Notes: generated from the sequence alone by a model not told the origin. DNA of 64,000 nucleotides from Candidatus Argoarchaeum ethanivorans (GCA_004193545.1 RPGO01000029.1:20096-84095), one strand, 5' to 3'. Counted from the first letter of the stretch, positions 6,481 through 30,945 are shown. Numbers and translations: made by a program.

Positions 6481-7893
6481 TGACCGTTACATTACATGTT
6501 GGTGAATTTTAATAAGTTGATCGGTGTCTGAGTGTGATAAAATGTTTTGGAACATTAGATCTCAGACACCATCTGTAGCTGTTGTTTTTATTTCATAAAT
6601 ATTTACGTTTGTTACCAAAATATTTATAATACATAAAAATTATGTATATTATGTGATACCATGTTTTGGGATTTATTATGCGGAAAAAATAATCTACAGC
6701 TACAATTAAGCGATTTTGAAGATGAAAATTCAATTAAATCTTTAGAAACAACGATAAGAAATTTTAAATACAAAAATAAGTCCTCAAAAAGTGGATTTTG
6801 TAAACGATGTGGGAGCTACAAATTGATAGGTTGGGGTGGTTATAGAAGGAACATCCGGCACATGTATGCTAAGGATGAACGTGTTCGAGCGATTCGATTT
6901 AGGTGTAAGACATGTGGAAAAACATTCACAGTATTGCCCATTGGTGTTACTTTCTATAAACGATTTGGAGATAAAGATTATCAGGAAATGGTGGAACAGA
7001 GATGCAGTCGCGGCTCAGGTTATAGAAGATTATCGAGAAGAGGCAAAATCAAATACTGCAGCCATGTTACAATGTGGAGACAAATGCAAAAAACAGGACA
7101 ACAAACTCTTAATGCCTTTTTCGATCTTGGAGATTTAACATTTTCAGGCATAATAATAATTGATGAGAGGTGGCTTTCTGTAGGTAATGGAATCTTTCAT
7201 TTTGGATGTATTGCACTGGATGGAATAACCGGAAGAATGATTCTTGCAGAAGTCTATCCTGCATTTACGAAAAAAGAAGCAGAGGAATTCCTTCGATTGC
7301 TATCGAAATTAGTTGATGTTGAATTTTTGGTTGCAGATGATTCTGTAATTCAGGCTGTAATTAACAAAGTGTTTCCTGATGCTATCAGACAGTATTGCAT
7401 ATTCCATATCAAGAAGAACATTAAAAAAGCATTTCGTGAAACAAAATTGATGAAACTTTCAGGTGAAGCTGTTAAAGTTAGAAAAGAGATTTTGGATATT
7501 TTCAATGCAGAAACCAGTGATGAAGCAATTCGGAGATTAGCGATTTTAGTTGAAAAAAGACACACGTTGCCTCCGATGGCTCAAGATGTTGTGAACAGAT
7601 TAGTTGGTAAGATTGAATGTTTGTTCCGGTATCTTGATTACGACATTCCAAAAACATCCAATCAAGCAGAACATATTTTTTCCCTTTTTCAACCGATTAT
7701 TGATGCCGCAAAGAGTTTTTCAACGGGCGCTGGAAACTTTTTCAAGACTATTATGTTTTATAAAAATTTCCATTTCTATTCTTCGGGATCAAATAAAGAT
7801 AAGAATACAATGCATTCCATAGGAGTTAATTCAGATTCGATGTTTGATTTTATCCAATTGCCTTAAGAGCACCAACATGTAATGTAACGGTCA
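6481..7893 (+). mobile_element. Insertion sequence, 1413 bp, with perfect 24-bp terminal inverted repeats
   Basis: Left TIR tgaccgttacattacatgttggtg (6481-6504) is the exact reverse complement of 7870-7893. It holds a single transposase ORF. I could see no clear target-site duplication. Confidence 0.85.
6661..7866 (+). CDS. DDE-type transposase with an N-terminal zinc ribbon
   Basis: 401 aa. CKRCGS...RFRCKTCGKTF forms the zinc ribbon. Candidate DDE residues are IIIDERW, LVADDS and NQAEHIF. The IS family is not assigned. Confidence 0.75.
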   Translation: MFWDLLCGKNNLQLQLSDFEDENSIKSLETTIRNFKYKNKSSKSGFCKRCGSYKLIGWGGYRRNIRHMYAKDERVRAIRFRCKTCGKTFTVLPIGVTFYKRFGDKDYQEMVEQRCSRGSGYRRLSRRGKIKYCSHVTMWRQMQKTGQQTLNAFFDLGDLTFSGIIIIDERWLSVGNGIFHFGCIALDGITGRMILAEVYPAFTKKEAEEFLRLLSKLVDVEFLVADDSVIQAVINKVFPDAIRQYCIFHIKKNIKKAFRETKLMKLSGEAVKVRKEILDIFNAETSDEAIRRLAILVEKRHTLPPMAQDVVNRLVGKIECLFRYLDYDIPKTSNQAEHIFSLFQPIIDAAKSFSTGAGNFFKTIMFYKNFHFYSSGSNKDKNTMHSIGVNSDSMFDFIQLP

Positions 7894-7926: not shown

Positions 7927-9762
7927 ATGACTGTTGTATGCTGTGATAAAATGTCAAGAAAAATGCTAAGAGTTGACCTAACATCAAAAACTTGTAAAGA
8001 AGAAGAAATCGATGAAGAAACTGCAAGAATGTTCCTTGGCGGAAGAGGTCTTGGAGTAAAGATACTATACGATGAACTGCAGGCTAATGTAGAGCCATTA
8101 TCTCAACAAAACATCATCGTAGTGGCAACAGGGCCTCTTACTGGAACGAAGAGTGCATCAAGCGGAAGGCACATAGTGGTTTCAAAAAGTCCAGCAACTG
8201 GTGGTCTAACGTTTGCAAGTGCAGGCGGTACATGGGCTACCGAGTTTAAAAAATGTGGATATGATGCAATTGTGGTAAAAGGAAAGGCTGAAAATCCGAC
8301 ATACATTTTAATAAATGATGAAAACGTTGAATTCAGGGATGCAGGCAAATTTTGGGGCAAACTTGTCAGTGAAGTGGATGATGGGATCAGAGCAGAAACT
8401 GATGAAGAAGCAAAAGTACTTCAAATAGGCATTGCTGGTGAAAAAAGATCACGTATGGCTGCAGTGATCAATGAGAAGTACCGTGCTGCCGGAAGGACAG
8501 GTCTTGGTGCTGTTTTTGGGAGTAAGAATCTTAAAGCAATCGTGGTAAAAGGCACAAAGGATGTAGAGGTTGCTAAACCTATCGCTTTTAGAAGAGCTGC
8601 AGACAAAGTGTTGAAGCTAATTTCAGAAAATGATGTTATGAAAGAGGGTGGGGCACTGAATACATACGGAACAACCGTGCTCACCAACATCATGAATGCT
8701 TCCGGAATATACCCAACAAAAAACTTCCAGACTGGAGTTTTTAAGGATGCAGATCTCATATCTGGTGAGCAAATAAAAAAAACAATCATGAAAGAGAAAA
8801 AAGCATGCTATGAATGTCCTACGGAATGTGGTCGCTGGATAAAAATAGAAAGCGGTAAATATGCTGGAACAGAAGGGGAGAGCCTTGAATATGAGTCGAG
8901 TTGGGCATTTGGCGGCGAATGTGGTGTGAATAATCTAAATGCGATCGCAAGAGCAAACTATCTCTGCAACGAGTATGGTCTTGATACAATATCAACTGGC
9001 TCAACAATAGGTTTCGCAATGGAACTCTTTGAGAAGGGAATCCTCTCAATCGATGATCTTGGCTTTGAACTGTCCTTTGGCGATGCAGATGCTATGATAA
9101 AAATGATAGAGCTAATTGCAAAAAGAAAGGGGTTTTTGGATGTACTCGCAGATGGGACAAAGCTTGCATCTCAAAAAATAGGAAAAAAATCAGAGTACTA
9201 TGCGATGCAGGTAAAAGGTTTGGAGCTTCCTGCCTATGATCCAAGAGGAGCTTTTGGTATTGGGTTAAATTATGCAACTGCAAACCGTGGAGCATGTCAT
9301 GTCAGCGGATACACGATCGCAGCCGAGATAATCGGGTCGCCACTAAAAGTTGACCCGGTTGATGCAAGCGAAGCCAAAGTGGATCTTACCATCCTATTCC
9401 AGAACCTCACTTCTGCGGTTGATTCGTCGAGCAATTGCCTCTTTTTAACCTTCGCGATAGGTGCTGATGAGTATGCAAACATGATCGCAGGAGTGACTGG
9501 CTGGGATGGGTACACACAAGATGAGTTTTTAAAGACAGGTGAGCGGATATTTGCACTGGAGAGACTGTTTAACAAGCGAGAAGGATTTGACCGAAAGGAC
9601 GACAAACTGCCTGAGAGATTTTTAATAGAAGAGATGCCAGAAGGTCCTGCAAAAGGAAAAGTGCATCCATTAGAAGACATGCTTACAATGTATTATGAGA
9701 GACGTGGCTATGATGAAGATGGATACCCTTCAAAACAAAAGTTAAATGAACTTGGGTTGTAG
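7927..9762 (+). CDS. aor: Aldehyde:ferredoxin oxidoreductase (tungstopterin AOR family)
   Basis: 611 aa. The N-terminus MLRVDLTSKTCKEEEIDEETARMFLGGRGLG is typical, as are the 4Fe-4S/pterin motifs CYECPTECGR and RGACHVSGY. The true start may be the internal MSRKM. Confidence 0.9.
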   Translation: MTVVCCDKMSRKMLRVDLTSKTCKEEEIDEETARMFLGGRGLGVKILYDELQANVEPLSQQNIIVVATGPLTGTKSASSGRHIVVSKSPATGGLTFASAGGTWATEFKKCGYDAIVVKGKAENPTYILINDENVEFRDAGKFWGKLVSEVDDGIRAETDEEAKVLQIGIAGEKRSRMAAVINEKYRAAGRTGLGAVFGSKNLKAIVVKGTKDVEVAKPIAFRRAADKVLKLISENDVMKEGGALNTYGTTVLTNIMNASGIYPTKNFQTGVFKDADLISGEQIKKTIMKEKKACYECPTECGRWIKIESGKYAGTEGESLEYESSWAFGGECGVNNLNAIARANYLCNEYGLDTISTGSTIGFAMELFEKGILSIDDLGFELSFGDADAMIKMIELIAKRKGFLDVLADGTKLASQKIGKKSEYYAMQVKGLELPAYDPRGAFGIGLNYATANRGACHVSGYTIAAEIIGSPLKVDPVDASEAKVDLTILFQNLTSAVDSSSNCLFLTFAIGADEYANMIAGVTGWDGYTQDEFLKTGERIFALERLFNKREGFDRKDDKLPERFLIEEMPEGPAKGKVHPLEDMLTMYYERRGYDEDGYPSKQKLNELGL

Positions 9763-9767
9763 TATGC

Positions 9768-10811
9768 ATGCCTGCATACGAAGAGCTTGAATCAGAGGTG
9801 ATAGAAAGTGGGATATGCACATGCTGTGGTGCATGCATTGCCTCGTGCCCACTTAATCACCTTCAATGGATTAATGGAATACCTAAAAGGCCAGAAAAAA
9901 AGGATGCATGCAAAGACTGTGAGACCTGCTATCATGCATGTTATAAGACTGGATTCAACGAAAGTAAGATAGAAGAGATGATCTTTGGGAGACAAAGGAG
10001 AGAAGAAGAGGCTATCGGAATATACCGAAATATTTTTGAAGCAAAGGTAAACGATAAGAAAATTCTCTCAAAATCACAGGATGGTGGGATTGTAACAGCA
10101 ATTTTGAGATACGTTCTGAATGCAGATATAATAGACGGTGCCATACTTGCAGAAAGTTATAAGTGGAAGCCTGAGCCAACAGTTGCAACAACATTTGATG
10201 GTTTTGTCAAAGCTTCGGGAACTAAGTATGGAACTACGCCAAACCTGATGAAGATCAGAACAGCTGTTATCGATCAAACACTCGACCGGGTATGCATCGT
10301 TGGAACACCCTGCCACATCAGATCAACAAGGCATCTTCAGTACATAAATTTCGAGCTTTATCCTGCAATAACTCTATTAGTTGGTCTTTTCTGCAGGGAG
10401 AATTTTGAATATGAGAAGATGCGCAAAAGAATAGAAGAGGATAGTGTTGACATTACTGAAATAACAAAGATCAGTGTTTCTAAGAATTTTTTTAATGCAT
10501 ACACAAAAGAGAACAAACTATCCTTCCCTATTACAGAGACAAGTGGTTGGGTTCCAAAACACTGTCTTGTCTGCGAGGATTATACCAGTGAACTGGCTGA
10601 CATATCAGTAGGATGCGAAGGATCTGGAGAGGGATGGTCAACTGTTATAATCAGAACAGAAACAGGAGAAAAGATATTTTCAGGATTGGAAAGAAGCGGA
10701 GTTATAACAACAAAGACACTTGGCGATCTCGATCATATCAAAGAAGTATCTATAAGAAAAAGACGTAAGGCAGAACACAGCAGGGAGACATTCAAGCTAA
10801 AAGAAGACTGA
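9768..10811 (+). CDS. FrhB/FdhB-family protein (F420-binding beta-subunit-like) with an N-terminal 2x[4Fe-4S] ferredoxin module
   Basis: 347 aa. CTCCGACIASCP and CKDCETCYHAC cysteine clusters; FrhB-like core with QDGGIVTAIL and GTPCHIRS. It starts 5 nt after the aor stop. Confidence 0.7.
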   Translation: MPAYEELESEVIESGICTCCGACIASCPLNHLQWINGIPKRPEKKDACKDCETCYHACYKTGFNESKIEEMIFGRQRREEEAIGIYRNIFEAKVNDKKILSKSQDGGIVTAILRYVLNADIIDGAILAESYKWKPEPTVATTFDGFVKASGTKYGTTPNLMKIRTAVIDQTLDRVCIVGTPCHIRSTRHLQYINFELYPAITLLVGLFCRENFEYEKMRKRIEEDSVDITEITKISVSKNFFNAYTKENKLSFPITETSGWVPKHCLVCEDYTSELADISVGCEGSGEGWSTVIIRTETGEKIFSGLERSGVITTKTLGDLDHIKEVSIRKRRKAEHSRETFKLKED

Positions 10812-11667: not shown

Positions 11668-13386
11668 ATGATACAGGCAATGCTGCTGTGCATTGCGATG
11701 TTGTGTTTGGTACTGCCTGTGCAAGCAGGTGACCCAGCAACTGGTGTGTGCATAATAAAGTACGATATGGACGGTTTGACACTGGACGAAACAAATGTAA
11801 CGTACCAGTGGATGGAAGCAAATCTACCTATTCATGGTAGTGATTTGGCAAACCGCTACTATCGGGGACCAAGCTTTGATTTGGGCAATCTGTGGGATCC
11901 TGATGAGACTGCAAACCTCAAGAATAAAAGTCCGATGGTTGGGGCAAACGCCACGAGTTTGTGCGACCTTGTTGATGGAATGTTCCCAGGCGATGGGGAA
12001 GAGATTAAAGCATCTGATAGCTTCTCCGGGTGGTTTGCATGGGATGACATCTATGGCCACAGTTACCAACCCTGGCAGATGCCAATGCTTCTTACACGGC
12101 ACCACCGTGCAGATGCCAGTGTGTTTGGTAATTGGGATATGCACGAATACGTGGATGAAAACTACTGGCACTATTACCAGCCAGGTATTCCATCTCCAAA
12201 GGGACTATCTATAAAATGCGTTGATAAACCAACGATCTACAGCACTGAGCCACTTCCGCGAACATTGTCTGCGCCGTCATCAGTCATTTCATGGGGGCCC
12301 TACATCACAAACACCGATACAAACTCAACAACTATTAACTGGAAGTCAGAAGATGCGACTTTAGGAATAGTTAAGTACGCGATAGAGAAGTATTATGCTG
12401 AGAACGGTGAATACGACCACATAATCAACGATACCGAAAATAAACAACTACATCATCTTGTTATAAGAGATTTAACTCCGAACACGGTGTATCATTATCA
12501 GTTAACAGTTGGGACTGGTTCTACAGGCGACCGCACATTCAAGACATATGGCAATGGTTCATTCACCTTCATAGTCTACGGGGACACGAGAGAGCAGACT
12601 GGTTTATTCACGCAAATGGAGAGGCACAAACTCGTTGCAGACAGTATTGCAGAAGAGGAAAATATTTCATTTGTAATACATACAGGAGATTTTGTCTGCA
12701 GTGGAAACGACATGGATGAATGGAATGACTTCTTCGATGCCGGCAGAGCGATGCTGGCAAATACCACCTTGTATCCAGTGCTCGGGAATCACGAAGATAA
12801 TCACACGAACTATTACGATGCCTTTGGAATGTTGGGATGGTATTCTTTCGACTGCGGAAACGTGCACTTCACTGTGCTGGACAACAACGACTGGGCATCG
12901 CCGCACACGACAGGGCAAACGGAATGGTTACGAAACGACCTTAATACAAGTGCAACCTGGAAATTCGTGTCGTTCCACCATCCGATTTACAGCTCAAATG
13001 AACGACATTTGGGCGGCTGGAAAAACGATGTGTGGGAAAATATTTTCATAAACAACGGTGTGGATGTGGTATTCAACGGTCATGTACACGTTTACGAACG
13101 ATACGAGGAGAGTGGCATCCAGTACGTGGTCTTGGGCTGCGGGGGCGCACCATTGTACTCTCTTGCATCTGAGAAGATACGGGGCTACCAGAGCAGCTTT
13201 GAACATGCGCTTGGATACGCCAGAATTACGATAGAAGGAGATAAAGCGACAATGGAAGTGATAAAAGTTGCAGACGTATCAGAAGATAACAAAGTGGTTA
13301 CACATATCTATCCACCGGATACGGTATTCGAGACCGTTGTCCTTGAGCAAGCACACGGGATCTGCAGCGATGTGACCCAGGAGTGA
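11668..13386 (+). CDS. Secreted fusion protein: type-A SUOX-fold-like domain + purple-acid-phosphatase-type metallophosphoesterase
   Basis: Signal peptide. The N-domain is paralogous to the next four genes (VTYQWMEANL...FGNWDMHE). Phosphoesterase motifs are GDTREQ, GDFVCSGN, GNHE, HHPIYSS and GHVHVYER. Confidence 0.8.
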   Translation: MIQAMLLCIAMLCLVLPVQAGDPATGVCIIKYDMDGLTLDETNVTYQWMEANLPIHGSDLANRYYRGPSFDLGNLWDPDETANLKNKSPMVGANATSLCDLVDGMFPGDGEEIKASDSFSGWFAWDDIYGHSYQPWQMPMLLTRHHRADASVFGNWDMHEYVDENYWHYYQPGIPSPKGLSIKCVDKPTIYSTEPLPRTLSAPSSVISWGPYITNTDTNSTTINWKSEDATLGIVKYAIEKYYAENGEYDHIINDTENKQLHHLVIRDLTPNTVYHYQLTVGTGSTGDRTFKTYGNGSFTFIVYGDTREQTGLFTQMERHKLVADSIAEEENISFVIHTGDFVCSGNDMDEWNDFFDAGRAMLANTTLYPVLGNHEDNHTNYYDAFGMLGWYSFDCGNVHFTVLDNNDWASPHTTGQTEWLRNDLNTSATWKFVSFHHPIYSSNERHLGGWKNDVWENIFINNGVDVVFNGHVHVYERYEESGIQYVVLGCGGAPLYSLASEKIRGYQSSFEHALGYARITIEGDKATMEVIKVADVSEDNKVVTHIYPPDTVFETVVLEQAHGICSDVTQE

Positions 13387-13819
13387 TGTGGACGTGCTGG
13401 ATGCAACCGGTGTGTGGAACCGAGCAATGAATCCAACCCTCCTTCTTGATTGTTGCATATAGAGGGAACAAGAAACAGACACAATATTGTTCCCAGCTAT
13501 CTAAAAGCAGAGAAGATCAGTACAATCTATACAAATCTGTGTCTAAAGTATATTTTTAAAACATTGATTAATATAGATTTATATTAATCATTGATATATG
13601 CTGCGCATCTTCAAAACACTTATAAACAATGTGTTATGTCTGTGCTAACATGATGAGGTGCTGTAACCAAAAACATTGAATCAACGACAACGATTCTGTT
13701 TTTGGCTGCAACAAGATACGGCTATGCGCAGGCTGAATTGTGAAACCTGCATTTTAAAAATATTGTAAAGATGGAATAAATAAAATTGATGAAAAATATG
13801 ATATTAAGAGGTAATTAAG

Positions 13820-16800
13820 ATGGGAAGAGATACAGGAAAAGGTGTGATACTGGCAATGCTATTATGCATTGTAATACTGAGTTCGGCAGTGCCTGTGATA
13901 GCAGCCACGACTGAAGTGAATATAACAAAGTACGCCTCAGATGATACGACAATCTTGAACAAAACTACAGTAACCTACCAGTGGATGGAGGCAAACCTGG
14001 CGGTGCAGGGCGATGGTTTTGTGAATTACTCCAACCAGGGACCAGTATTTGAAGGAGATAAATGGGACACAACCGAAACAGTGAATCTCAAGGACAAAGG
14101 TTATGTGAAAGGAACAGACGTTAAAGACCTCTGTGAACTGGTTGGAGGCATGTCAGCAGGAGATGAGGTAAAGATCATTGCATCTGACGGGTTTAGCAAA
14201 TGCTTCGGCTACGAGAACGTCTATTCGCCGCAACAGAGACAGGGACCGATGGTTCTCTGCTGGTACAGAGATGGGGCTCACGTCCCCGATTATAGCGACG
14301 GGATACAACTTGTCTTCTTTGCCAATGATACTGTCTTTGGCAACTGGGATATGCACGAATGCATGGCTCCCGAGTACTGGTACAATTACAGCGGTGTTTA
14401 CCCTTCCACAAACGGACTATCCGTAAGGGATGTCTCTAATGTAGCGATATATTCTGCAATAGAAGCAGTCTTCAGCGATGCGGTCACGCTCACGGAAGGG
14501 AACTTCACCTTAACTGCCTACGATTCAGTGGTCGATTACGAGGTGAAACAGCTTACGCCACTGGGAGCTCTCGATGCAGCAGCGACCGCCAGCGGATTTG
14601 ACTACAACGTCACCGATAAGAAGTTCGCTGATAAAGGCATTCTGATGCTTGACGACATCGGAGAGTATCGTTACAACAATGTAAATGATACTGTGAAATG
14701 GGCATGGAGTTGCTCGGTAAACGGCAACGTCCTGGATGACTGGAGCTATCCGGATACCGAGGGCTTGAACGTCTATGAACTTCAGGACAACGACGTGGTG
14801 TACTACTTCTACGGCAATGTCAAGCTGCCCGATTATGGGGCTGAAGACGCCATAGCGGTGGTTAATATCACAGCAAATGCTGGAACCGGAATTGATGTAA
14901 TCTTCGATGGTGCCGTCGTACTGGAAGAGGGCAACTTCATGTGGTATGATACGGACGGCAATCCGCACGAGGTTGCCAACTTCACGCCTCACGGTGCGCT
15001 CGAAGTTGCTGCCAATGACGGCGCGTTTGGCTATAACGGGAGCTGGACAGGGTCTAAAAATACCGCCCTGATCGACTGGATCGAGGAATATGAGTATAAT
15101 AATAGCGTTACACCCAAACTGACCTGGAACTACCTGTTAAATGGCGTATACCAGAACTACTACTCTGACACCACCGGCGTGAGCAACAACCCGATCACAA
15201 ACGGCGATTATATTGAGTTCTACTACGGAACTGATCAAGAGACCACGGAAAACGCGACCGCAGTCGCCAGGATCACGGTGAACCCGACGATAGGTTGGAA
15301 TCTTGGACTCGTTGGTGCAATAAACGAAATGATGAATAAAACCGCGTTTGAAGATGGCATAGCATGTCACAATGCTTCATATACTGATGCCGAGAATAGA
15401 ACATGGGAAGGTATTCCACTTTGGTATCTGGTGGGTCGGGTTGATGATGAAATACAGCATGGAGCCAGCGCATTCAACGACACGCTCGCAGCAGGGGGTT
15501 ACAGTGTAAAAGTCATAGCAGGCGACGGATGGAGCACCTCCCTTGATATTGCTGATATCGCACGGAACGATGGATATATCGTTGCAAATAAATTAAACGG
15601 CTCAGCACTTCCTGAGAACACCACCTCAGGGAAGCCTTGCTGGCCTCTCCACCTCAAAGGCACTAACGTAACTGGCGGACAGCAGGTCGGAAACATCGTT
15701 GAGATCCAACTCGTCGGTCTGCCCAAACCACCGGAAGGATGGACACTCAAGCTGCTCGGTGATATCGGTGACATTATCACACAGGCGGAATTCGAGGATG
15801 CTGTTTCATGCTATCATAACGTGACGTACACCGACGGTAGCGATACCTGGGGAGGCATTCCGCTCTGGTGTCTCTGTAGTGCGGTGGACAACCTCGAGGC
15901 AAGCAGTCACTGGACGTTTAATGACTCTCTCGCGGCGACCAACTACACGGTCAAAGTAATCGCAGCCGATGGATATAACAGATCATTTAACAGTAGCGAG
16001 ATTGCCCGTAACAATGGGTATATCGTGGCAAATAGTCTGAACGGAGAGCCACTCGATTATTTGTACCCTCTCAAGCTCGTGGGTAGCGCCGTTACATCTG
16101 GTAAGGACAAGGTTGGTAACATCTCCGAAATTAACCTTGTTGAACTTATCACCCCACCACCTGACTCTGGAAGCTATAACCTCAATTTGAGCGGCAAGAT
16201 CATCGATGTGCTTTCTCAAGCAGAGTACGAGGCTGCATCCAAACTCTCTTGCCATGGAGTAAACTGGACTGATCCTGATACTGGAGATGTCTGGGAAGGT
16301 GTTCCGCTCTGGTTCTTCTGTGGCTGGGTGGACGACCGGATATCACACGGTCCGGATGGTTTCGATGACAATCAGGCAACCGCAGGATACAAGATCATCG
16401 TGAAAGCAGGTGACGGATATTCCAAAGAATTCGCAAGTGCAGATGTGGCACGCAGCGGGGGATATATTGTTGCGGACACGCTGAACGGAACACCACTCTC
16501 AAAAGATGGATCGTCCCCACCCTGGCCACTCAGGCTCGTGGGCAGTGAAGTATCCGGTGGAAGTAGGGTTGGCAACATTGCAGAGATCGAACTGACCGAG
16601 TTTGGTGCGTTAACAGAGGTACCCTCTGTCCACATCATCAAGTATGATACGGACGGTATTACTATTCTAAACGAGACCAATGTCACCTACGTGTGGATGG
16701 AGGCAAATCTCCAGGTCATTGGAGATGGCACAATGGCATACAGGTTCGAGGCTTGTGATTTCACCGAAGGAAACCACTGGGATCAGGATGAGACTTATCC

Positions 16801-17824
16801 CGGGGGCTTTAAGGTTGACAGGGTAGTGAAAGGGACTTCGGTTAAAGACCTGTGTGAACTTGTCGGAGGCATGATAGAAGGAACTGAGATCAAGCTGGTC
16901 GCCAGCGATGGGTATGAAACCAAACTGGGCTACGAAAACATCTACACCAACGAACTCTCGAGTGAGCAGCAGGAACGCCAGGGTGAGGCTTTCCTCGCAT
17001 GGTGGGCGAATGATCAGGGCTATGTGCCTGGCTATTCCAATGGAATGCGACTCTTCTTTACTGCAAACGCCAGCGATCATATCTTCGGCAACTGGGACAT
17101 GCACGAGTGCATGGACGAGGATTACTGGCACTACTACTGGAATGAAGGCATCCAGTACCCGTCATGTGGGGGTCTTTCTGCCAAGTATGTCAACACCATC
17201 AAGATATACAATGGCACAGAGGCGGACTGGACTCTCACGTTAGACGGTGCTATCAAGGATACCATCAGTAAATCCTACTTTGAGAATGCTCTCACCTGTA
17301 CGATGGGGGGACACGCCGCCGAATACACGGATAGCGAAGGCAGGACATGGGAGGGTTTACCTCTCTGGCTGCTCTGTGGCTGGGTTGATGATGAAAACTC
17401 ACACTCAGAAGGTGCATACAATGACACGCTTGCCGCAGCAGGATACAACATTACAATCATCGCGAGCGATGGACACAGTGTGACACTGAACAGCACAATC
17501 ATTACACGCAACGACAATATCATCCTTGCGAACAAACTAAAAGGAACAGTGCTCCCTGAGAAGTACTTTCCGCTCAGACTGACAGGTTCGGCTCTTGAGA
17601 AGAGTGAGATGGTCAGAAACGTTGTGAAGATACGTATCCCGGAGTTAATGCTGCGTGGCGATGCCAACCATGACGGAGCCCTCTCGACAGTAGATTCGGC
17701 ACTTGCCTTGCAGATGGCAGTCGGCGGCATCGAGACGGATCTTGTTGCTGATATGAGTGGAGACGGGCGGGTCACATCGGTGGACGCGCTGATGATCCTG
17801 CAAGCTACGCAGGATTCCGGTTAG
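13820..17824 (+). CDS. 1334-aa modular secreted protein: 2 type-A domains, 2 DUF4430-like domains, 4 type-B SUOX-fold modules and a C-terminal dockerin
   Basis: Signal peptide. Type-B modules begin near 15296, 15740, 16172 and 17229, each with the pattern W(E/G)G(I/V/L)PLW...DG(W/Y/H)S...(I/L)AN(K/S/T)LNG...PL(R/K/H)L. The second type-A copy is at 16629-17210. The dockerin GDANHDGALSTVDSALALQ...DMSGDGRVTSVDALMILQA is at 17653-17815. Confidence 0.8.
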   Translation: MGRDTGKGVILAMLLCIVILSSAVPVIAATTEVNITKYASDDTTILNKTTVTYQWMEANLAVQGDGFVNYSNQGPVFEGDKWDTTETVNLKDKGYVKGTDVKDLCELVGGMSAGDEVKIIASDGFSKCFGYENVYSPQQRQGPMVLCWYRDGAHVPDYSDGIQLVFFANDTVFGNWDMHECMAPEYWYNYSGVYPSTNGLSVRDVSNVAIYSAIEAVFSDAVTLTEGNFTLTAYDSVVDYEVKQLTPLGALDAAATASGFDYNVTDKKFADKGILMLDDIGEYRYNNVNDTVKWAWSCSVNGNVLDDWSYPDTEGLNVYELQDNDVVYYFYGNVKLPDYGAEDAIAVVNITANAGTGIDVIFDGAVVLEEGNFMWYDTDGNPHEVANFTPHGALEVAANDGAFGYNGSWTGSKNTALIDWIEEYEYNNSVTPKLTWNYLLNGVYQNYYSDTTGVSNNPITNGDYIEFYYGTDQETTENATAVARITVNPTIGWNLGLVGAINEMMNKTAFEDGIACHNASYTDAENRTWEGIPLWYLVGRVDDEIQHGASAFNDTLAAGGYSVKVIAGDGWSTSLDIADIARNDGYIVANKLNGSALPENTTSGKPCWPLHLKGTNVTGGQQVGNIVEIQLVGLPKPPEGWTLKLLGDIGDIITQAEFEDAVSCYHNVTYTDGSDTWGGIPLWCLCSAVDNLEASSHWTFNDSLAATNYTVKVIAADGYNRSFNSSEIARNNGYIVANSLNGEPLDYLYPLKLVGSAVTSGKDKVGNISEINLVELITPPPDSGSYNLNLSGKIIDVLSQAEYEAASKLSCHGVNWTDPDTGDVWEGVPLWFFCGWVDDRISHGPDGFDDNQATAGYKIIVKAGDGYSKEFASADVARSGGYIVADTLNGTPLSKDGSSPPWPLRLVGSEVSGGSRVGNIAEIELTEFGALTEVPSVHIIKYDTDGITILNETNVTYVWMEANLQVIGDGTMAYRFEACDFTEGNHWDQDETYPGGFKVDRVVKGTSVKDLCELVGGMIEGTEIKLVASDGYETKLGYENIYTNELSSEQQERQGEAFLAWWANDQGYVPGYSNGMRLFFTANASDHIFGNWDMHECMDEDYWHYYWNEGIQYPSCGGLSAKYVNTIKIYNGTEADWTLTLDGAIKDTISKSYFENALTCTMGGHAAEYTDSEGRTWEGLPLWLLCGWVDDENSHSEGAYNDTLAAAGYNITIIASDGHSVTLNSTIITRNDNIILANKLKGTVLPEKYFPLRLTGSALEKSEMVRNVVKIRIPELMLRGDANHDGALSTVDSALALQMAVGGIETDLVADMSGDGRVTSVDALMILQATQDSG

Positions 17825-17834
17825 AGGGAAAGGG

Positions 17835-19316
17835 ATGGAAAGAGCGCCATTGACAATACCGATGCCATTGATACTGTGCATCGGTATTGCGCTCCTGCTC
17901 TCAACGCTTCCGGCGCAGGCAGCCACAACTGAAGTGCATCTGGTAAAGTACGCCTCTGACGAAACAACTGTTCTGAACGAAAGAACGGTGACTTATGGAT
18001 GGATGGAAGAGAATCTGCCTGTGCAGGGCGATGGTGTTACACATTACTTCCACCAGGGACCCATGTTTGGGGAAAAGTTCGAGAACGATCCGTGGGACAT
18101 AAATGAGACGACAAATATAGATAGCAGGGATTTTGGTGCTGTAAAAGGGACCGATATTAAAGACCTATGTGAACTGGTCGGTGGAATGTCTTCGGGCGAG
18201 GAAATAATGATCCACGCGTCTGACGGCTTCAGAAAGTACTTTGGTTACGCAAATGTCTACGATCCAGACCCGAGACAGGGACAAATGGTGCTGACATGGT
18301 GGCGAGCTGATGATGGATACGTTCCAGACTATTCCACTGGGATGCGGCTCGTCTTTTTTGCTGGAGATCATGTATTTGGGCACTGGGATATGCACGAGTG
18401 CTTATCTCCTGAGTACTGGTACAATTACACGGACAGCGATGGCGGACACCCCTCGTCAGGCGGGCTATCTATAAAAAACATTGATAGGATAGTGATTTAC
18501 AGCATGATGGATCCACCGGAATTATGTTCAATCGATATTTCTCCAGCCAACCTGACACTGGATATCGGTTACGAACAGCAGTTCAACGCAATTGCGTATG
18601 ATCAATACGGCACAGAAATATCGAATATTATCTTTGTGTGGGCAAGCGACAATGAAACCGTTGGAACGATCAATGCTACAGGATTATTTACTGCACTCTC
18701 AGCCGGCAATGTCACGATAACAGCAGAGAATGAAACAGTGAAGGGGACAGTAAATGCAACAGTAAAGAGCCAAGTACCAGCATCAACGCCAACGCCAACC
18801 CCATCTCCAGATCCCACCCATCTGCCTGATCCTATTTTGACAATAATTAACATCTTACCATCATCAGTAACACTAAACATCAGCGGCACGCAGCAGTTCA
18901 ACGCAATTGCGTATGATCAACATTATAATGAAATGTTTGGAGTTACTTTCAACTGGACAACCAGCAATACAACAATTGGAACAATCAATAATACTGGATT
19001 CTTCAGAGCTAATACTATAGGGACAACAATGATAAAAGCTACAAATGGAAATGTGGATGGAACCGGGAGTGTGATGGTATCCAGTACAGAACCAGCCGAA
19101 ATACCTAAGGCAAAGGTAGCACCTTCTTCATCTCCTACCTCTGTCACCACTACGCCAAATGCAACCAAGATCCCTTTGCCATCCACAACACCAGCTCCTG
19201 TCCAAACATCTACACCAGTGCCATCATCATCAGTACAAGGATTTGAAGCGTTATCTGCAATAGGCGGATTGTTGGCAATAGCTTATGTGATTAAATGGAG
19301 GAAAAAAATAAAATGA
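17835..19316 (+). CDS. Secreted protein: type-A domain + 2 Big_2-like Ig domains + Pro/Thr linker + archaeosortase-type C-terminal anchor
   Basis: Signal peptide. Two repeats of QQFNAIAYDQ...TVGTIN.TG.F. PT-rich linkers. The C-terminus VQGFEALSAIGGLLAIAYVIKWRKK looks like PGF/PEF-CTERM. Confidence 0.75.
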   Translation: MERAPLTIPMPLILCIGIALLLSTLPAQAATTEVHLVKYASDETTVLNERTVTYGWMEENLPVQGDGVTHYFHQGPMFGEKFENDPWDINETTNIDSRDFGAVKGTDIKDLCELVGGMSSGEEIMIHASDGFRKYFGYANVYDPDPRQGQMVLTWWRADDGYVPDYSTGMRLVFFAGDHVFGHWDMHECLSPEYWYNYTDSDGGHPSSGGLSIKNIDRIVIYSMMDPPELCSIDISPANLTLDIGYEQQFNAIAYDQYGTEISNIIFVWASDNETVGTINATGLFTALSAGNVTITAENETVKGTVNATVKSQVPASTPTPTPSPDPTHLPDPILTIINILPSSVTLNISGTQQFNAIAYDQHYNEMFGVTFNWTTSNTTIGTINNTGFFRANTIGTTMIKATNGNVDGTGSVMVSSTEPAEIPKAKVAPSSSPTSVTTTPNATKIPLPSTTPAPVQTSTPVPSSSVQGFEALSAIGGLLAIAYVIKWRKKIK

Positions 19317-20107
19317 ATCAAAGAATAATATTTGTGATTTCGTTGTTTCTGTTGTTGGTATGCACGGTGTGTATTGCTCACGCGGATCCAACGACAGAAG
19401 TGCATGTGGTAAAATATGCTGAAGACGGGACAACCGTTCTTAATGAAACAGATGTAACTTATGAATGGATGGAGGCAAATCTACATGTCCAGGGAGACGG
19501 AGTAACGCATTACTACCACCAGGGACCCGTATTTGAAGGAGACAAATGGGATCAAAACGAGACTGCGAACTTTAAAGATAAGGGTGCTGTTAAGGGCACG
19601 GATATCATGGATTTATGCAATCTCGTTGGAGGAATGTCTCCTAGCGATGACGTAATGATCCACTCGCATGACGGCTACCACGTGGAGTTTGCCTACACGA
19701 GTGTCTACGAACCAGAAGCACGGCAGGGGCCAATGGTTCTCTGCTGGTACAATGGAAATGATACAAAGGTTGGTGAACGCCAGGGCGTTGGCTATCCGCC
19801 TGACTACTACACCGGGATGCGACTCGTCTTCTTCGCTGATAATCATGTCTTCGGTAACTGGGACATGCACGAGTGCCTGCCTGCGAAGTGCCAGCATTTC
19901 TATGAACTGTATCCCTCTACAAACGGGTTTACAGTGAAATGGGTGGACGAGTTGAGGGTTTATAGCGGTGGATATACTGATGATGAGGGAGGTCCTGCAA
20001 AATCCATGCCTGAGTCAGAACCAAGTTCGGCGCAGGGATTCAATGCCATTCCAGGGATTGCAGGACTCTTGCTGGTTGCATACATGCTAAGGAGAAGTAT
20101 GAAATGA
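19295..20107 (+). CDS. Secreted type-A domain protein with an archaeosortase-type C-terminal anchor
   Basis: 270 aa. It is a paralogue of the N-domains of the three preceding genes. The C-terminus is AQGFNAIPGIAGLLLVAYMLRR. Confidence 0.75.
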   Translation: MEEKNKMNQRIIFVISLFLLLVCTVCIAHADPTTEVHVVKYAEDGTTVLNETDVTYEWMEANLHVQGDGVTHYYHQGPVFEGDKWDQNETANFKDKGAVKGTDIMDLCNLVGGMSPSDDVMIHSHDGYHVEFAYTSVYEPEARQGPMVLCWYNGNDTKVGERQGVGYPPDYYTGMRLVFFADNHVFGNWDMHECLPAKCQHFYELYPSTNGFTVKWVDELRVYSGGYTDDEGGPAKSMPESEPSSAQGFNAIPGIAGLLLVAYMLRRSMK

Positions 20108-20676
20108 AAGTAGACAGCAGAATTTCCATTCTACCAACCTTAGTAATTACGATGGTGTGTATCGGGGTTATCATCACTGCAACAGGGTGCCTGCATCTTT
20201 CCGGAGTTACAGAGGAAAAAATCGACTGGAACCTGACACTTGTCGGCGATGAAGAAATGGTGCTGTCATTCGATGATATTACAGCAATGCCATCTTATAC
20301 CGGGCGTGGTGGATTCTTCTCGACTGTTGGTATGAAATATGGCCCCTTTGAATGCAAAGGCGTTCCAATAGAAGACCTTTGCGATCTTGTCGGAGGAATT
20401 GACGAATCGAGCACGATATGGATATCCGCACCAGATGGATATATGATGGTTTTTGACTACGACCAGATAAAATGCGATTTTAACACCTTTGACCCGGAAG
20501 ACCTTAGAGAGGTTCCGCATGGCGATCTAAAGCTGATATTGACATATTGGCAGGATGGCAAACTCCTCCCGGAAAATGATGGGAGACCTTTTAGAGTTTC
20601 CATAGTTGGAAAAGAAGACCTCATGACTGAAGGCAGTTACTGGGTTAAATGGGTAAACAGGATTGAGATCAGATGA
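20104..20676 (+). CDS. Small membrane-anchored or lipoprotein-like protein with a single SUOX-fold (Oxidored_molyb-like) domain
   Basis: 190 aa. The pattern DWNLTLVG...CKGVPIEDLCDLVGG...APDGYMMVF...LTYWQDGKLLPENDGRPFRVSIVG...VKWVNRIEI follows the PF00174 topology. It overlaps both neighbours by 4 nt (ATGA). Confidence 0.65.
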   Translation: MKVDSRISILPTLVITMVCIGVIITATGCLHLSGVTEEKIDWNLTLVGDEEMVLSFDDITAMPSYTGRGGFFSTVGMKYGPFECKGVPIEDLCDLVGGIDESSTIWISAPDGYMMVFDYDQIKCDFNTFDPEDLREVPHGDLKLILTYWQDGKLLPENDGRPFRVSIVGKEDLMTEGSYWVKWVNRIEIR

Positions 20677-21746
20677 GAACGGCTTATATGGTAACACTCT
20701 TATCTCTTTTGATAATTGTTGTTATCATTTTTGGTACAGTATTAACAGGTGAACAAAAGAAAACTGAATTGGATGTTATCTATGCTGGAAGTTTGATCGT
20801 GCCATTTGGGGAAATAGAACATCAATTTGAAAGCAGGCATCCAGACGTTGATGTGCGAATCGAAGGACACGGAAGCATCCAGGCAATCAGGCACATAACA
20901 GACATTCATGAGGAGTACGATGTGCTCGCGGTTGCAGACGAGAACCTGATTCCTGACCTGATGTATGCTACCGGCAATAATACAGAGAGCTATGCAGACT
21001 GGTATGTCAGATTTGCAAGAAATCAAATGGTTATTGCATACACCAACGAAAGCAGATACGCAAACGAAATCAACGAATCAAACTGGTATGAAATCCTTGC
21101 ACGACCGGATGTGAAGTTCGGGTTTTCAAATCCGATGCTCGATGCATGCGGATACAGAACCCTGATGATAGCACAACTCGCTGAATTGTACTATGACGAT
21201 CAAACAATCTTTGACAGGTTAATATCCTGCAATTTCAATCCGGAAATACCAGTAACAGAAAATAACGGAACCTACATAGTGCTCATACCGGAAATATTCA
21301 AGCCCCAAAGTAAAAAAATTATTATCAGGGGAGGGAGTGTGCAGTTGTTAGCACTACTTGACTTTGCCGAGATAGATTATATATTCGGATACAAAAGCGT
21401 GGCTCAACAACATGGATTGCGGTTTTTGGAGCTTCCAACCGAAATTGATTTGAGCTCGCCGGAATACGAAGACACCTACAAAAAAGTTATTGTCAGGCTT
21501 GGATTTCAACGGTTTACATCAGTTGGAACTGATCGGGTTGGTGAACCGATTTTCTATGCGATTACAATTCCGGAGAATGCACCACACCCGGAACTTGCTG
21601 CACAGTTTGTGGAGTTTGTGATAAGCGAGGAGGGACAGAGAGTGCTCAATGATATAAAGCAGCCCACGGTTATACCTGTAGCTGATAACTTTGACATGAT
21701 GCCTGATGAGCTCAAGGAGTGTGTGATTGAAGGACGCAAGCCTTGA
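20673..21746 (+). CDS. wtpA: Tungstate/molybdate ABC-transporter substrate-binding protein (WtpA/ModA-like); no permease or ATPase gene nearby
   Basis: 357 aa. The N-terminus has a TM or signal segment. VIYAGSLIVPFGEIEHQFESRHPDVDVRIEGHGSIQAIR and NPMLDACGYR are typical of archaeal WtpA. Confidence 0.75.
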   Translation: MRTAYMVTLLSLLIIVVIIFGTVLTGEQKKTELDVIYAGSLIVPFGEIEHQFESRHPDVDVRIEGHGSIQAIRHITDIHEEYDVLAVADENLIPDLMYATGNNTESYADWYVRFARNQMVIAYTNESRYANEINESNWYEILARPDVKFGFSNPMLDACGYRTLMIAQLAELYYDDQTIFDRLISCNFNPEIPVTENNGTYIVLIPEIFKPQSKKIIIRGGSVQLLALLDFAEIDYIFGYKSVAQQHGLRFLELPTEIDLSSPEYEDTYKKVIVRLGFQRFTSVGTDRVGEPIFYAITIPENAPHPELAAQFVEFVISEEGQRVLNDIKQPTVIPVADNFDMMPDELKECVIEGRKP

Positions 21747-28044: not shown

Positions 28045-30945
28045 CTATCGCCCAGCCGCCGCCTGTAGAATTATTAATGCATCGAGGGATGTGATTTTGC
28101 CGTCGCCACTGACATCAGCAGCATCGTCGAACGAGCGGCTACCGGTGGCTATTTCGAGAGCGATCGCGGCATCTGCTGGTGTGAGTGCGCAGTCACAGTT
28201 GAGGTCACCTCTTATCGTTGGCACAAACCCCGCTTCATCCATAGCGTGTCTCACGTACGGATTTTGCATGAATTCACGCCACACTATTCCACTACGATAA
28301 TTCTCAATCATGAGCATGATCGCACCCTCATCAATTCCGATATACTCATCAGTCCGCCACGTCTGGCATCCGCCGAGAGAAACATTCGTATCAAGATTGA
28401 ACGCATCCTTAAAACCGTATTCACCCCATATTTTACCGCCATAAGTTTCGTACATATACCGCAAAGCAGGAATTGCAATATCAGGCGCTAACGCAACCGA
28501 TCCTCCAGCTCCAGTCGGTGGGATGGTTCCATCGTGCCAATAGCAAGGACAGCCCCCATAGCCAGTATACCCGCCAGGTCCATCACATGCAGTAAGTCCC
28601 CAGCAGTTCTCGCCATAAGTGGCATACACATCGCTGTTATCGATACAGAACAATCGGTTCTCTCTGACTGCGTTTATCGAGTTCTGCCAGTAGTTTGCAT
28701 AATCGTCATGTTTACACCTGAAATCAATCCAGCAGTGCGAATACTGATAGGTGAATAAACTTCCAGTCCAGCAATAGATAAAATTCTCACCGTCACAACT
28801 GTTTGAGGTGCTGCAGGGTAGTTTAAAGTCATCCATGTAAATCGCAGAACCGGATGTGGACGCATTGGTTCCCAAAATAGCAACTGTGAATCGGTTAACC
28901 TTCGTCTTATCCAGTACACCATCCTGCATTGTCAATTCCCACACTCTAAAGGATGAAACTGGTATATCAAGTTCATTCCAACCCGTCCAGTTCAAAGGCA
29001 ATTCGTATATCCAGTATTCCTTGCCATAATCTTCTTCGATCTTAATTCTCAATGTATTACTGGAATTATCACCATATATCCACAGATTTACACTATCGTA
29101 GTTAGCTCATGTACTTTTTTGCAGGTAGGCTCCGCACCGTTCCCCGCCAGTGCCATCGCCAATGGTATAGCCGATCTTCATCGAATAATCCCCGATTTTG
29201 CTATTGTTCGAGCGCGATATATCGATGGATGCGCCGGAACCGGAGTCTGCAAATGTTACCCAAGCACTCACATCATTATCTTCAAAATCGTCTACCATTC
29301 TGCCACAGTCCCTTCCGTACGTGCTTGCCCACGCATCCCAACTCCATTTCGGATCCGGAACCGGATGGGTTGGTGAGCCAATAGCCAAGAGGTACATAAT
29401 CATTGCTTCATTATAACCGCGCCAGTAGTCTGATGATAAGCCCTCTTCAGGAGTCCATTTCATTGCGATCGTATCAGTTCCGTTGAGCATCCACGTCCAG
29501 TTAACTCTTTCATAGAGCTCATTTGACAGGTTCATTATGCTCTCATTTTCTTTAAAATGCTCGCCGGCATGTAACACTCCTGCCATCAGGAGTGCGGTGT
29601 CAATGGACGATACCTCACAATCCCATTCACGCTCCCCCGTGCTCATGTTGATCCAGTGATAATAAAAACCTTCTTTATTATATAAATTGTTGAACGTTTC
29701 AAATATGGTTAATATCCGGTCAGATGCGTCCGTGCGATTTACCCACCCTCTGCTTTCTGCTATGCATATCGCCGAGAGGCCAAAACCCACCGACGCGATA
29801 CTGCAAGGGGAATCCGGTGTGCTTCTATCCCTAATCAAACCGTTTGTTTGGTTTACTTCGCTCCAGAAATAGTTAAAAGTGGCATGTTCTACCATCTCAA
29901 GAAAATCATCGTCTGATACGGGCATGTCAGACAATTCCAGTCTGATGTCATCCACGTAAATGGTGGAACCGGGTGGACTGTTTCCGGATACGACCAGTGT
30001 AAAGCGATTTATCTTCGACTTATCATAGATACTTTCTGCGGCCCCCTCAGCAACAAAGGATGAGAGCGGTATAACGAGTTTTTTCCACCCACTCCAATCT
30101 ATAATTGATGTGTACTTCCACCATTCTCCATTATACGCTTCCTCGAGCTTAATTTCCAGTGTATTGCCAGAATTGTCACCACACACCCACAAACTCACAT
30201 TGTCATAATTTACCCATGTATCCATCTGCCTGTAAACGCCGCACCAGTTTGTTTCATACCCGCTTATGTTGCAGCCGATCCTCATCGAGTAACTCCCGGA
30301 TTTACTGTTATTTGAAAGTGACAGGTTGATGGATGCGTTTTGGGTTGCAAATAGAGACCAATCGCCCACGTCAGCATCTTCGAAATCATCGATGATGGGA
30401 TTTGTCATGTCCGCTTTCGTGAGATATTTCTCGCCATCTGATGGGTCGTACTGATTGGAATATAACACAGGTGAAATCGCTGCCATCTGCAGGATCATGG
30501 GCGCATCGAGGGGTGTGACTTTGCCGTCGCCATCATTTTCGACAATGCTATTATTGATTATGTCACATGCATTATTTTCGATATAGACTCCGTAGTCTCC
30601 ATTTCTCATAGCGAACCCATCAATTGTGACATTATTAGCTGTTATATACGCACATTTACTGCTTCCCAAACCGAGTATATTTGAGCTCCCATTCTCCCCA
30701 ACAAGTATAAATGATTTGGAAATTGAAATACGCTCATAATAAGACCCGTTATAAACAAAAATCGTATCGCTTTCGTTTGCTGCATCTATTGCATCCTGAA
30801 TCTTCGTAAAGTCCGCACCGCCATTGACATCCACATACCAAATCTTTCCAGATGCTGTTCCAATAAACAACAAACTTAATATCGCCACTACAAAAAGAAC
30901 AGCCATCAACTTCCGTTTCAAAGCATTTTCAATTACCATCTTCAC
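28045..30945 (-). pseudogene. Secreted GH144/PF10091-like (putative beta-1,2-glucanase or 'glucoamylase') protein interrupted by one in-frame TGA. Domains: beta-helix, two CBM-like domains, dockerin.
   Basis: ORFs 29107-30945 and 28045-29052 are in the same frame and are separated only by the TGA at 29109-29107. Catalytic motifs are TFNYFWSEV..GLIRDRS..SIASVGFGLSA, then LFTYQYSHCWIDFR and WGLTACDGPGGY. The C-terminal dockerin is at 28048-28215. Confidence 0.7.

Follow-up and report, generated by a model that had tools for sequence, protein, structure and literature searches.

SUOX-fold surface proteins coupled to a divergent WtpA in archaea, a candidate module for tungsten or molybdenum capture

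Introduction

Methanogens and the anaerobic oxidizers of methane and alkanes need tungsten (W) or molybdenum (Mo) for formylmethanofuran dehydrogenase, formate dehydrogenase and AOR-type enzymes. In the sulfidic habitats of these organisms free molybdate and tungstate are scarce, and the route by which metal is acquired there is an open question. Here we analyze a 64-kb stretch of DNA (the window, to which all coordinates refer) whose nearest public sequences are Candidatus Argoarchaeum ethanivorans (94%) and metagenome-assembled genomes (MAGs) of GoM-Arc1 Methanosarcinales (89%). It contains an array of five genes (G1 to G5) followed by a linked wtpA gene, whose product we call WtpA*. The array encodes exported proteins predicted to be built on the sulfite oxidase-type (SUOX) fold, and its last genes belong to a conserved unit that includes a WtpA-type solute-binding protein with an altered metal site. 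These properties make the array a candidate for an extracellular system that captures W or Mo.

Gene content of the locus

Repeat types were defined by BLASTP comparisons among the proteins and with sliding segments of G2. Type A (~190 aa) has two copies in G2 and a single copy in each of G1, G3 and G4, and these are 32-56% identical (BLASTP E 1e-30 to 1e-82). Type B (~150 aa) has four copies, all in G2 (46-51% identity to the first), as are both copies of type C (~135 aa). G5 shares just 27-35% identity with type A (E ~1e-8). An earlier annotation made from the DNA alone (the sequence-only reading) called five same-strand open reading frames (ORFs), all of which were recovered on the plus strand, and proposed that each of them carries A domains, B domains or both. 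This is so for type A in G1 to G4, but type B is confined to G2, and G5 carries a third, canonical PF00174-type domain. The genes and their parts are as follows (GA, Pfam gathering threshold).

G1, 11668..13386, plus strand: Sec signal, apparently degenerate type A domain (aa 21-192), PAP N-terminal fn3-like domain and calcineurin-like metallophosphoesterase (Pfam Metallophos 58.6 bits; Pur_ac_phosph_N 33.4 bits)
G1 type A domain, 11737-12243, plus strand: 28-aa deletion; 33-43% identity to the other A copies
G2, 13820..17824, plus strand: 1334-aa multidomain surface protein with the order A, C, C, B, B, B, A, B, dockerin-like tail
G2 type A domains, A1 13904-14467 and A2 16625-17224, plus strand: from internal repeat comparison
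G2 type C domains, C1 14453-14872 and C2 14873-15280, plus strand: from internal repeat comparison
G2 type B domains, B1 15281-15727, B2 15728-16174, B3 16175-16624 and B4 17225-17644, plus strand: internal repeats
G2 dockerin-like tail, 17657-17797, plus strand: Pfam Dockerin_1 E 7e-4, below GA
G3, 17835..19316, plus strand: signal peptide, type A domain (17925-18503), two Big_2 domains (Pfam 74.7 bits across two stretches), Thr/Pro-rich linker and PGF-CTERM-like anchor
G4, 19295..20107, plus strand: minimal form of the family, in which a signal peptide precedes the type A domain (19385-19966) and the C-terminal anchor has the form QGF...hydrophobic...basic
G5, 20104..20676, plus strand: 190 aa, with an N-terminal transmembrane (TM) or lipobox-like (TATGC) segment and one PF00174 domain
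wtpA, 20673..21746, plus strand: WtpA*, an N-terminally anchored WtpA-family solute-binding protein of the G5-linked subfamily

G1 is separated from G2 by 434 nt, while the genes from G2 onwards are closely packed: the G2-G3 gap is 10 nt, and the G4/G5 and G5/wtpA junctions are each 4-nt overlaps, the second of which had already been noticed in the sequence-only reading and is seen in the ORF coordinates. The listed start of G4 (19295) would produce a 22-nt overlap with G3. The true start is probably the in-frame ATG at 19313, because it forms an ATGA overlap with the G3 stop codon and is preceded by GGAGG 10 nt upstream. The A domain of G1 is the most diverged copy, and the 28 residues that it has lost include the GMRLVFFA strand, so this domain may be degenerating. 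The five motifs of the G1 metallophosphoesterase (GDT, GDFV, GNHE, FHH and GHVH) are all legible in its sequence.

Elements that would place the proteins at the cell surface differ from one member to the next. The G3 match to the Pfam PGF-CTERM model reaches 16.7 bits (GA 18.8) and the dockerin match of G2 reaches 20.1 bits (GA 22.9), whereas homologs of the window proteins have dockerin and PGF-CTERM matches above threshold. G4 ends in QGF...LLLVAYML-RRSMK, with no Pfam PGF-CTERM match reported, and many homologs in the A family carry a precomputed match to PF18204. The fusions that had been proposed for the array are borne out for the phosphatase and the Ig (Big_2) domains, and are probable for the dockerin and archaeosortase signals, whose matches are sub-threshold in the window but above threshold in homologs. 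A DUF4430-like (transcobalamin-like) identity for the C domains was not confirmed: PF14478 matched two of ten C domains with E = 0.12 at best, and a type C profile found no related entry among PDB sequences. The PGF-CTERM, dockerin, Ig and lipobox/TM elements vary by member, and the earlier description of a diversifying cell-surface family is supported.

Three families of the SUOX fold

The domain of G5 is recognized directly as a SUOX domain. It matches PF00174 at 32.4 bits (GA 24), every one of the 108 homologs in the G5 family (~190 aa) is annotated with PF00174, and a family profile searched against PDB sequences found SUOX enzymes exclusively (SoxC, plant sulfite oxidase, SorA and nitrate reductase). 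Three of the four B copies match PF00174 below threshold (15-18 bits, E 0.002-0.016), and the B family profile matches SorT, SorA and plant sulfite oxidase in the PDB; the A domains gave no direct match to PF00174.

By comparing trimmed family alignments with hhalign, it was found that G5 aligns over the whole domain with both A (98.1% probability, E 1e-13) and B (93.5% probability, E 2e-7). Matches from untrimmed alignments were set aside as artefacts of neighbouring domains in fragmentary homologs, and hidden Markov models (HMMs) made from the window A and B alignments found only chance matches among PDB sequences, so family-level profiles were needed. The direct comparison of A with B is weak (16% probability), and the relatedness of these two types thus rests on the bridge through G5 and on the PruR-like models which they have in common.

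Structure prediction with AlphaFold2 gave a model of A with a pLDDT of 75.5 and pTM of 0.79, for which the top Foldseek match is PruR (E 2e-4, probability 1.0). The model of B (pLDDT 89.9, pTM 0.86) matches seven PruR chains (E 1.6e-5 to 1.5e-4, TM 0.56-0.69, probability 1.0), followed by SoxC (2xts_A, E 5e-4, TMq 0.61). PruR is a truncated SUOX fold without the Mo-ligand Cys; it binds pterins other than the molybdenum cofactor (Moco) in the periplasm and acts on an adjacently encoded partner (PMC11194511). On the basis of these profile comparisons, and of the models for A and B, the A, B and G5 domains are three diverged families of the SUOX fold. The assignment to this fold in the sequence-only reading therefore holds for all three domain types.

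Type A is a large family, with at least 657 clusters at 50% identity among matches with E up to 1e-3 (469 of them with E up to 1e-10), and there is no Pfam model for it. The domain is nearly always an N-terminal head, in proteins of 207-3139 aa. G4 has 620 homologs, mostly of ~270 aa and many with PF18204. NCBI and UniRef name many of the type A/PGF-CTERM proteins 'argininosuccinate synthase' (P0039, P0046, P0060, P0081, P0086-P0088, P0100, P0106, P0109), which looks like a propagated misannotation, since neither sequence nor model backs this name.

Larger proteins combine the domains in several ways. For example, a B-rich Methanoculleus protein of 1206 aa has the order C-B-B-B-A-B, which is that of the C-terminal part of G2. 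In relatives from ANME and Methanosarcinales (L011, L016, L017, L055, L061, L065; P0129-P0143), a G5-like PF00174 domain lies between B domains (B-G5like-B), which suggests that the three domain types have been freely recombined. The NCBIfam model NF041762 (GEGP-motif diheme protein) has weak local matches to a KGT.v.DLC.LVGG...DG stretch (G2 aa 97-136; G5 aa 84-127), which raises the possibility of a SUOX-like module in that family too.

Absence of the molybdenum ligand and route of export

The sequence-only reading had been unable to identify a Mo-ligand Cys in the array, and the canonical residue is indeed absent from all three domain types. In an alignment with SoxC, the Cys of CAANGG falls on the first Phe of GGFFSTVG in G5, and this column is Phe or Ala across the G5 family (37 members). 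In place of the corresponding hairpin, type A has a long loop that is highly conserved and free of Cys (GDG..HY.HQGP.F..D.WD..ET.N.KD). Type B has no Cys at the aligned position. Its Cys-x(0-4)-His pair, in which the His is invariant and the Cys mostly conserved, lies several residues upstream of that position and could form a different ligand site.

Information on export points in the same direction. Tat-like RR motifs were found in only 2 of 113 A, 1 of 96 G5 and 0 of 48 B family proteins, the signals of the window proteins are of plain Sec or anchor type, and ~40% of G5 proteins contain a lipobox-like cysteine. To our knowledge, all exported Moco enzymes are Tat substrates which receive their cofactor in the cytoplasm, so Sec export argues for domains without cofactor. 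Given the absence of a Mo-ligand Cys, the near absence of Tat signals and the position of PruR as the closest structure, the A, B and G5 proteins are very probably not molybdoenzymes.

A role in extracellular redox chemistry, which had been suggested for the array, is accordingly unlikely, the nearest structures being those of a non-enzymatic pterin binder. One could still picture the proteins as genuine extracellular Mo- or W-pterin oxidoreductases, or as redox-active through other ligands, for instance the paired Cys and His of type B, with wtpA supplying the metal. G5 belongs to PF00174, type B retains its invariant His and mostly conserved Cys near the active-site hairpin region, and WtpA-bound molybdate can be reduced (PMC10221389). 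Besides the missing Cys of G5 and A and the scarcity of Tat motifs, this proposal has to contend with Pfam scans that detect no fused heme, Fe-S or dimerization domains and with top structural matches to the truncated, non-catalytic PruR fold instead of the enzymes. We therefore consider it very improbable.

Conservation of the gene order

To place the array in a broader context, an A-domain alignment was used to scan one genome per GTDB species. This yielded 326 loci, of which the best 80 were analyzed; these are G4 orthologs, so the linkage statistics below describe the G4-orthologous A subfamily and not every A-domain gene. A G5 gene follows the A gene in 79 of the 79 loci with room for one, and WtpA follows in 68 of 70. 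Overlaps of 4 nt occur at the A/G5 junction in 55 of 69 loci and at the G5/WtpA junction in 54 of 73. WtpB and WtpC come directly after in 22 of 60. A phosphoesterase is present in 50 of 80 loci, and B domains, within 10 kb of this triad, in 46 of 80; the mean number of A copies per locus is ~3. Independent look-ups seeded with G5 returned the order A-G5-WtpA-WtpB-WtpC(TOBE) with a phosphoesterase nearby (WtpB/WtpC in L085-L087). Methanomicrobiales encode the phosphoesterase as a gene of its own, with no A domain fused to it.

The carriers include Methanosarcinales (GoM-Arc1, ANME-2c, Methanosarcinaceae and Methanothrix), ANME-1/Methanophagales and Methanomicrobiales (Methanoculleus, Methanoregula, Methanolinea, Methanofollis, Methanocalculus and Methanocorpusculaceae), and Methanocellales are present among the type A protein matches. 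A-G5-WtpA is thus a conserved, translationally coupled unit across Methanosarcinales, ANME-1 and Methanomicrobiales, an association with wtpA that is far stronger than had been suspected from the window. Some contigs with this unit carry the label of a bacterial MAG (Clostridiaceae, Chloroflexota, Dehalococcoidales and Thermoanaerobacteraceae; L018, L057, L064, L087; P0100), and one of these (L087) has SLH and Shr-like_HID neighbours. Such contigs could reflect mis-binning or genuine transfer to bacteria.

The sequence-only reading regarded wtpA as an orphan. A tblastn search for wtpB and wtpC found neither in the 64-kb window, so a neighbouring permease and ATPase are indeed missing, but the gene belongs to a distinct subfamily that is always linked to the array genes and has an altered metal site. 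An accidental orphan is rejected by the conserved gene order and the 4-nt overlaps.

The same data bear on the possibility that the A/B proteins have a general envelope or adhesive function, as part of an S-layer-associated or dockerin/cohesin network, that G5 alone has a functional tie to WtpA*, serving it for instance as a chaperone or selectivity lid, and that clustering reflects co-regulation. Fusions to Ig, PKD, PEGA, dockerin and PGF-CTERM modules would fit such a function, as would the highly variable architecture and copy number of the proteins and the differing placement, from locus to locus, of the large ones with respect to the core triad. However, it is the short A protein (the G4 ortholog) that is translationally coupled to G5, in most of the loci counted above; the homologous binding folds of A, B and G5 all show strong conservation in their polar loops, which would be unexpected in mere spacers; and B-rich proteins lie no more than 10 kb from the triad in over half of the loci (46/80). 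We regard an adhesive role as improbable on this evidence.

A divergent WtpA subfamily

WtpA* passes the NCBIfam equivalog models NF003196 (383.3 bits, cut-off 355) and TIGR03730 (363.7 bits, cut-off 242.75), and aligns over ~300 residues with the structures of MA_0280 and AF_0094 (E ~1e-89). WtpA-type proteins bind tungstate octahedrally with the help of one Asp and one Glu carboxylate (PMC10221389, PMC4139814). The Asp ligand is kept in WtpA* (NPMLDAxGYR, with NPMLDA in place of NPNDDP). In what we take to be the A. fulgidus numbering the two W ligands are Asp153 and Glu218, and the Asp-Glu spacing of 65 residues in our alignment fits these positions. The Glu-bearing motif RSMEMEL reads R[GD]GS[VI][QYF]L in the window protein (RGGSVQL) and in all 79 linked orthologs, so that the equivalent of Glu218 is Ser and the second Glu is Gln, Tyr or Phe in every one of them. 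In addition, EAAGSA has become EGHGSIQ, with an invariant EGHGS that contains a new conserved His. An unlinked paralog (L015) retains the canonical WtpA motifs; unlinked WtpA paralogs that occur in the same loci have either canonical motifs or yet other variants.

By these motifs the G5-linked WtpA is a distinct subfamily. Its ligand, or the way in which the ligand is coordinated, probably differs from that in the solved structures, because the Glu is replaced and a new His is present. A few kb upstream of the A-G5-WtpABC cluster of L085, a stand-alone gene (607-816) encodes a 69-aa TOBE (molbindin-like) protein, which is consistent with a Mo/W context.

The remodelled pocket of WtpA* is one reason to consider salvage of cofactors, in which the SUOX-fold modules would bind pterin-type ligands at the cell surface (free or protein-derived molybdopterin or tungstopterin, or their breakdown products), the metallophosphoesterase would cleave a phosphate or dinucleotide, and the metal or a metal-dithiolene fragment would pass to WtpA*. 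Other reasons are that a phosphoesterase with intact catalytic motifs is found in 50 of 80 loci, that the invariant DGY of G5, the DG[YF] of A and a C-terminal KW may match the Asn, Tyr and Trp which hold the pterin in PruR, and that molybdopterin is the native ligand of the SUOX fold, with the pterin-binding PruR nearest to A and B (PMC11194511). On the other hand, profile searches with A, B and G5 found no sequence-level match to PruR, the correspondence of DGY and KW to its pterin site is one that we infer from sequence, 30 of 80 loci (some of them truncated) lack the phosphoesterase, and a TOBE-bearing WtpC suggests an oxyanion substrate. Free Moco is also very unstable. Cofactor salvage therefore seems unlikely, if less so than an adhesive function.

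A proposed system for capture and hand-over of tungsten or molybdenum

We propose that the genes from G2 to wtpA, together with G1 immediately before them, represent the form taken at this locus by a cell-surface module conserved among archaea. Proteins of the A, B and G5 types would be exported unfolded through Sec, and their SUOX-fold modules would act outside the cell as ligand binders instead of molybdoenzymes; ligand binding is their most likely function, given the loss of the Cys, the Sec export and the likeness to the minimal, non-catalytic PruR fold. The proteins would be positioned at different depths of the envelope, with giant A/B-repeat proteins held by dockerin or Ig modules, short type A proteins by PGF-CTERM and G5 by a lipobox or TM segment. 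G4 and G5 are translationally coupled to their specialized WtpA-type binding protein. A W or Mo species captured at the cell surface could then be handed through G5 to WtpA* for ABC import, in a relay that we liken to the hand-over of heme from NEAT domains to IsdE in Gram-positive bacteria, while the co-clustered metallophosphoesterase would probably process or release the ligand.

Surface capture of Mo or W species with hand-over to a specialized WtpA/ABC importer is a proposal to which we give roughly even chances; function as redox enzymes or as pure adhesins is less likely than such a relay. The ligand could be an oxyanion, a thiolated form or a pterin-bound metal. The last of these is attractive because SUOX folds natively bind molybdopterin and because pterins are the ligands of the closest structures. 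A more specific version, which would make the module a new type of metal-acquisition system, is that cofactor-less SUOX folds displayed at the surface have kept an ancestral affinity for metal-dithiolene pterins and scavenge environmental tungsto- or molybdopterin, or some other complexed or thiolated W/Mo of the kind dominant in sulfidic sediments, that the phosphoesterase processes what is captured, and that the metal moves via G5 to a Glu-less, His-containing WtpA tuned to such a non-oxyanion or partly coordinated species; we consider this combination rather doubtful.

Several points weigh against a relay of W or Mo. Binding of tungstate, molybdate or a pterin by A, B and G5 is something that we deduce from folds and gene order, as are the hand-over and the identity of the ligand, and the linkage counts come from a single A subfamily. 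WtpA* lacks a directly following permease or ATPase both in the window and in 63% of related loci, so import through WtpBC is assumed for those genomes. The ligand of WtpA* may not be tungstate or molybdate at all, since one of the two carboxylates is lost. Finally, the public sequencing runs that hold this locus are metagenomic DNA from marine sediment and cold seeps, with no RNA runs among them.

If the proposal is correct, the module would represent an undescribed extracellular capture system for W or Mo. No published description of an A-G5-WtpA module was found in the literature on PF00174 and tungstate, on WtpA of methanogens, or on the SUOX fold and molybdate transport. The coupled extracellular proteins before a remodelled WtpA provide a concrete, testable candidate for the acquisition of these metals in sulfidic habitats, and extend the recently recognized cofactor-less SUOX-fold binding proteins exemplified by PruR to Archaea and to a transport context. 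This analysis also defines the large type A family, and flags a WtpA subfamily with a metal site unlike that of every solved structure.

Neighbouring genes

The W-dependent aor gene that had been linked to the array is present upstream of it in the window (7927-9762), and an FrhB-like gene and an 857-nt gap stand between the two. None of the 80 related loci has an AOR gene within 10 kb, so a link between AOR and the array is rejected; the FrhB-like gene is common solely to a near-identical GoM-Arc1 relative (L006). This FrhB/FpoF-like gene (9768-10811) encodes an N-terminal 2x[4Fe-4S] domain and begins 5 nt after aor, which suggests that its product is an F420- or ferredoxin-linked electron-transfer partner associated with AOR. 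Just upstream of aor, a low-GC stretch (34%) contains a 401-aa ORF (6661-7866) with a DUF6431 zinc-ribbon-like N-terminus, which is probably a transposase-type mobile element. On the minus strand (28045-30945) there are two adjoining Glycoamylase-family genes, one with a dockerin and the other with a CBM_11 domain; the former indicates that the host genome encodes further dockerin-bearing secreted proteins. The remaining window contains ordinary archaeal genes (TFB, ProRS, H+-PPase, YcaO, Cdc48 and others) and no additional Mo/W genes.

Comparison with known systems

The WtpABC transporters (P. furiosus WtpA; A. fulgidus ModA/WtpA, 2onk/2onr; M. acetivorans MA_0280, 3k6u) are the closest relatives of the transport part of this module. 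WtpA* resembles their binding proteins in its equivalog match and in the retained Asp ligand, and in 22 of 60 related loci it is followed, as in those systems, by WtpB and a TOBE-bearing WtpC. It differs from them by the Ser in place of Glu218, by the His of EGHGS and by the A and G5 genes that always precede wtpA, and neither the window nor most related loci have an adjoining permease or ATPase.

The heme relay of the Isd/NEAT system is similar by analogy only. In both cases there are sortase-type anchored surface proteins with variable copies of one binding fold, plus a membrane-proximal binding protein and a solute-binding protein/ABC importer in one cluster. The folds are unrelated and the ligands different, and in the archaeal system both the ligand and its transfer are putative.

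The SUOX molybdoenzymes (sulfite oxidase, SorA/SorT, SoxC, YedY/MsrP) share a homologous fold with the window families and the motifs W.G(V/I)PL, DGY, NG.PL and PLRL...VKW. Unlike these enzymes, the window families lack the Mo-ligand Cys, the Tat signal and the dimerization or heme domains, and are predicted to be cofactor-less.

PruR of Agrobacterium, Vibrio and Klebsiella (PDB 7kos, 7kou, 7kom, 7kp2, 7rkb) also consists almost wholly of a truncated SUOX fold in a small, secreted protein. Like the archaeal proteins, it has no Mo-ligand Cys and no catalytic partner domains and is encoded in a tight operon with the extracytoplasmic partner on which it acts, and it is the top Foldseek match of the A and B models. 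There is no detectable sequence similarity between PruR and A, B or G5, however, and PruR has a Pro-Trp motif at the former Cys position where the G5 family has Phe or Ala. Its pterin contacts are N102, Y104 and W160, for which the DGY and C-terminal KW conserved in G5 and A are possible counterparts when compared by sequence motif only. The partners differ too, since that of PruR is a diguanylate cyclase/phosphodiesterase of the DcpA type (GGDEF/EAL) or a TorS/BaeS-type protein, while that of the archaeal proteins is a WtpA-type solute-binding protein (68/70 loci) with an ABC importer. PruR is proteobacterial, whereas in the archaeal system this fold has expanded to three families and occurs in giant surface proteins with many repeats.

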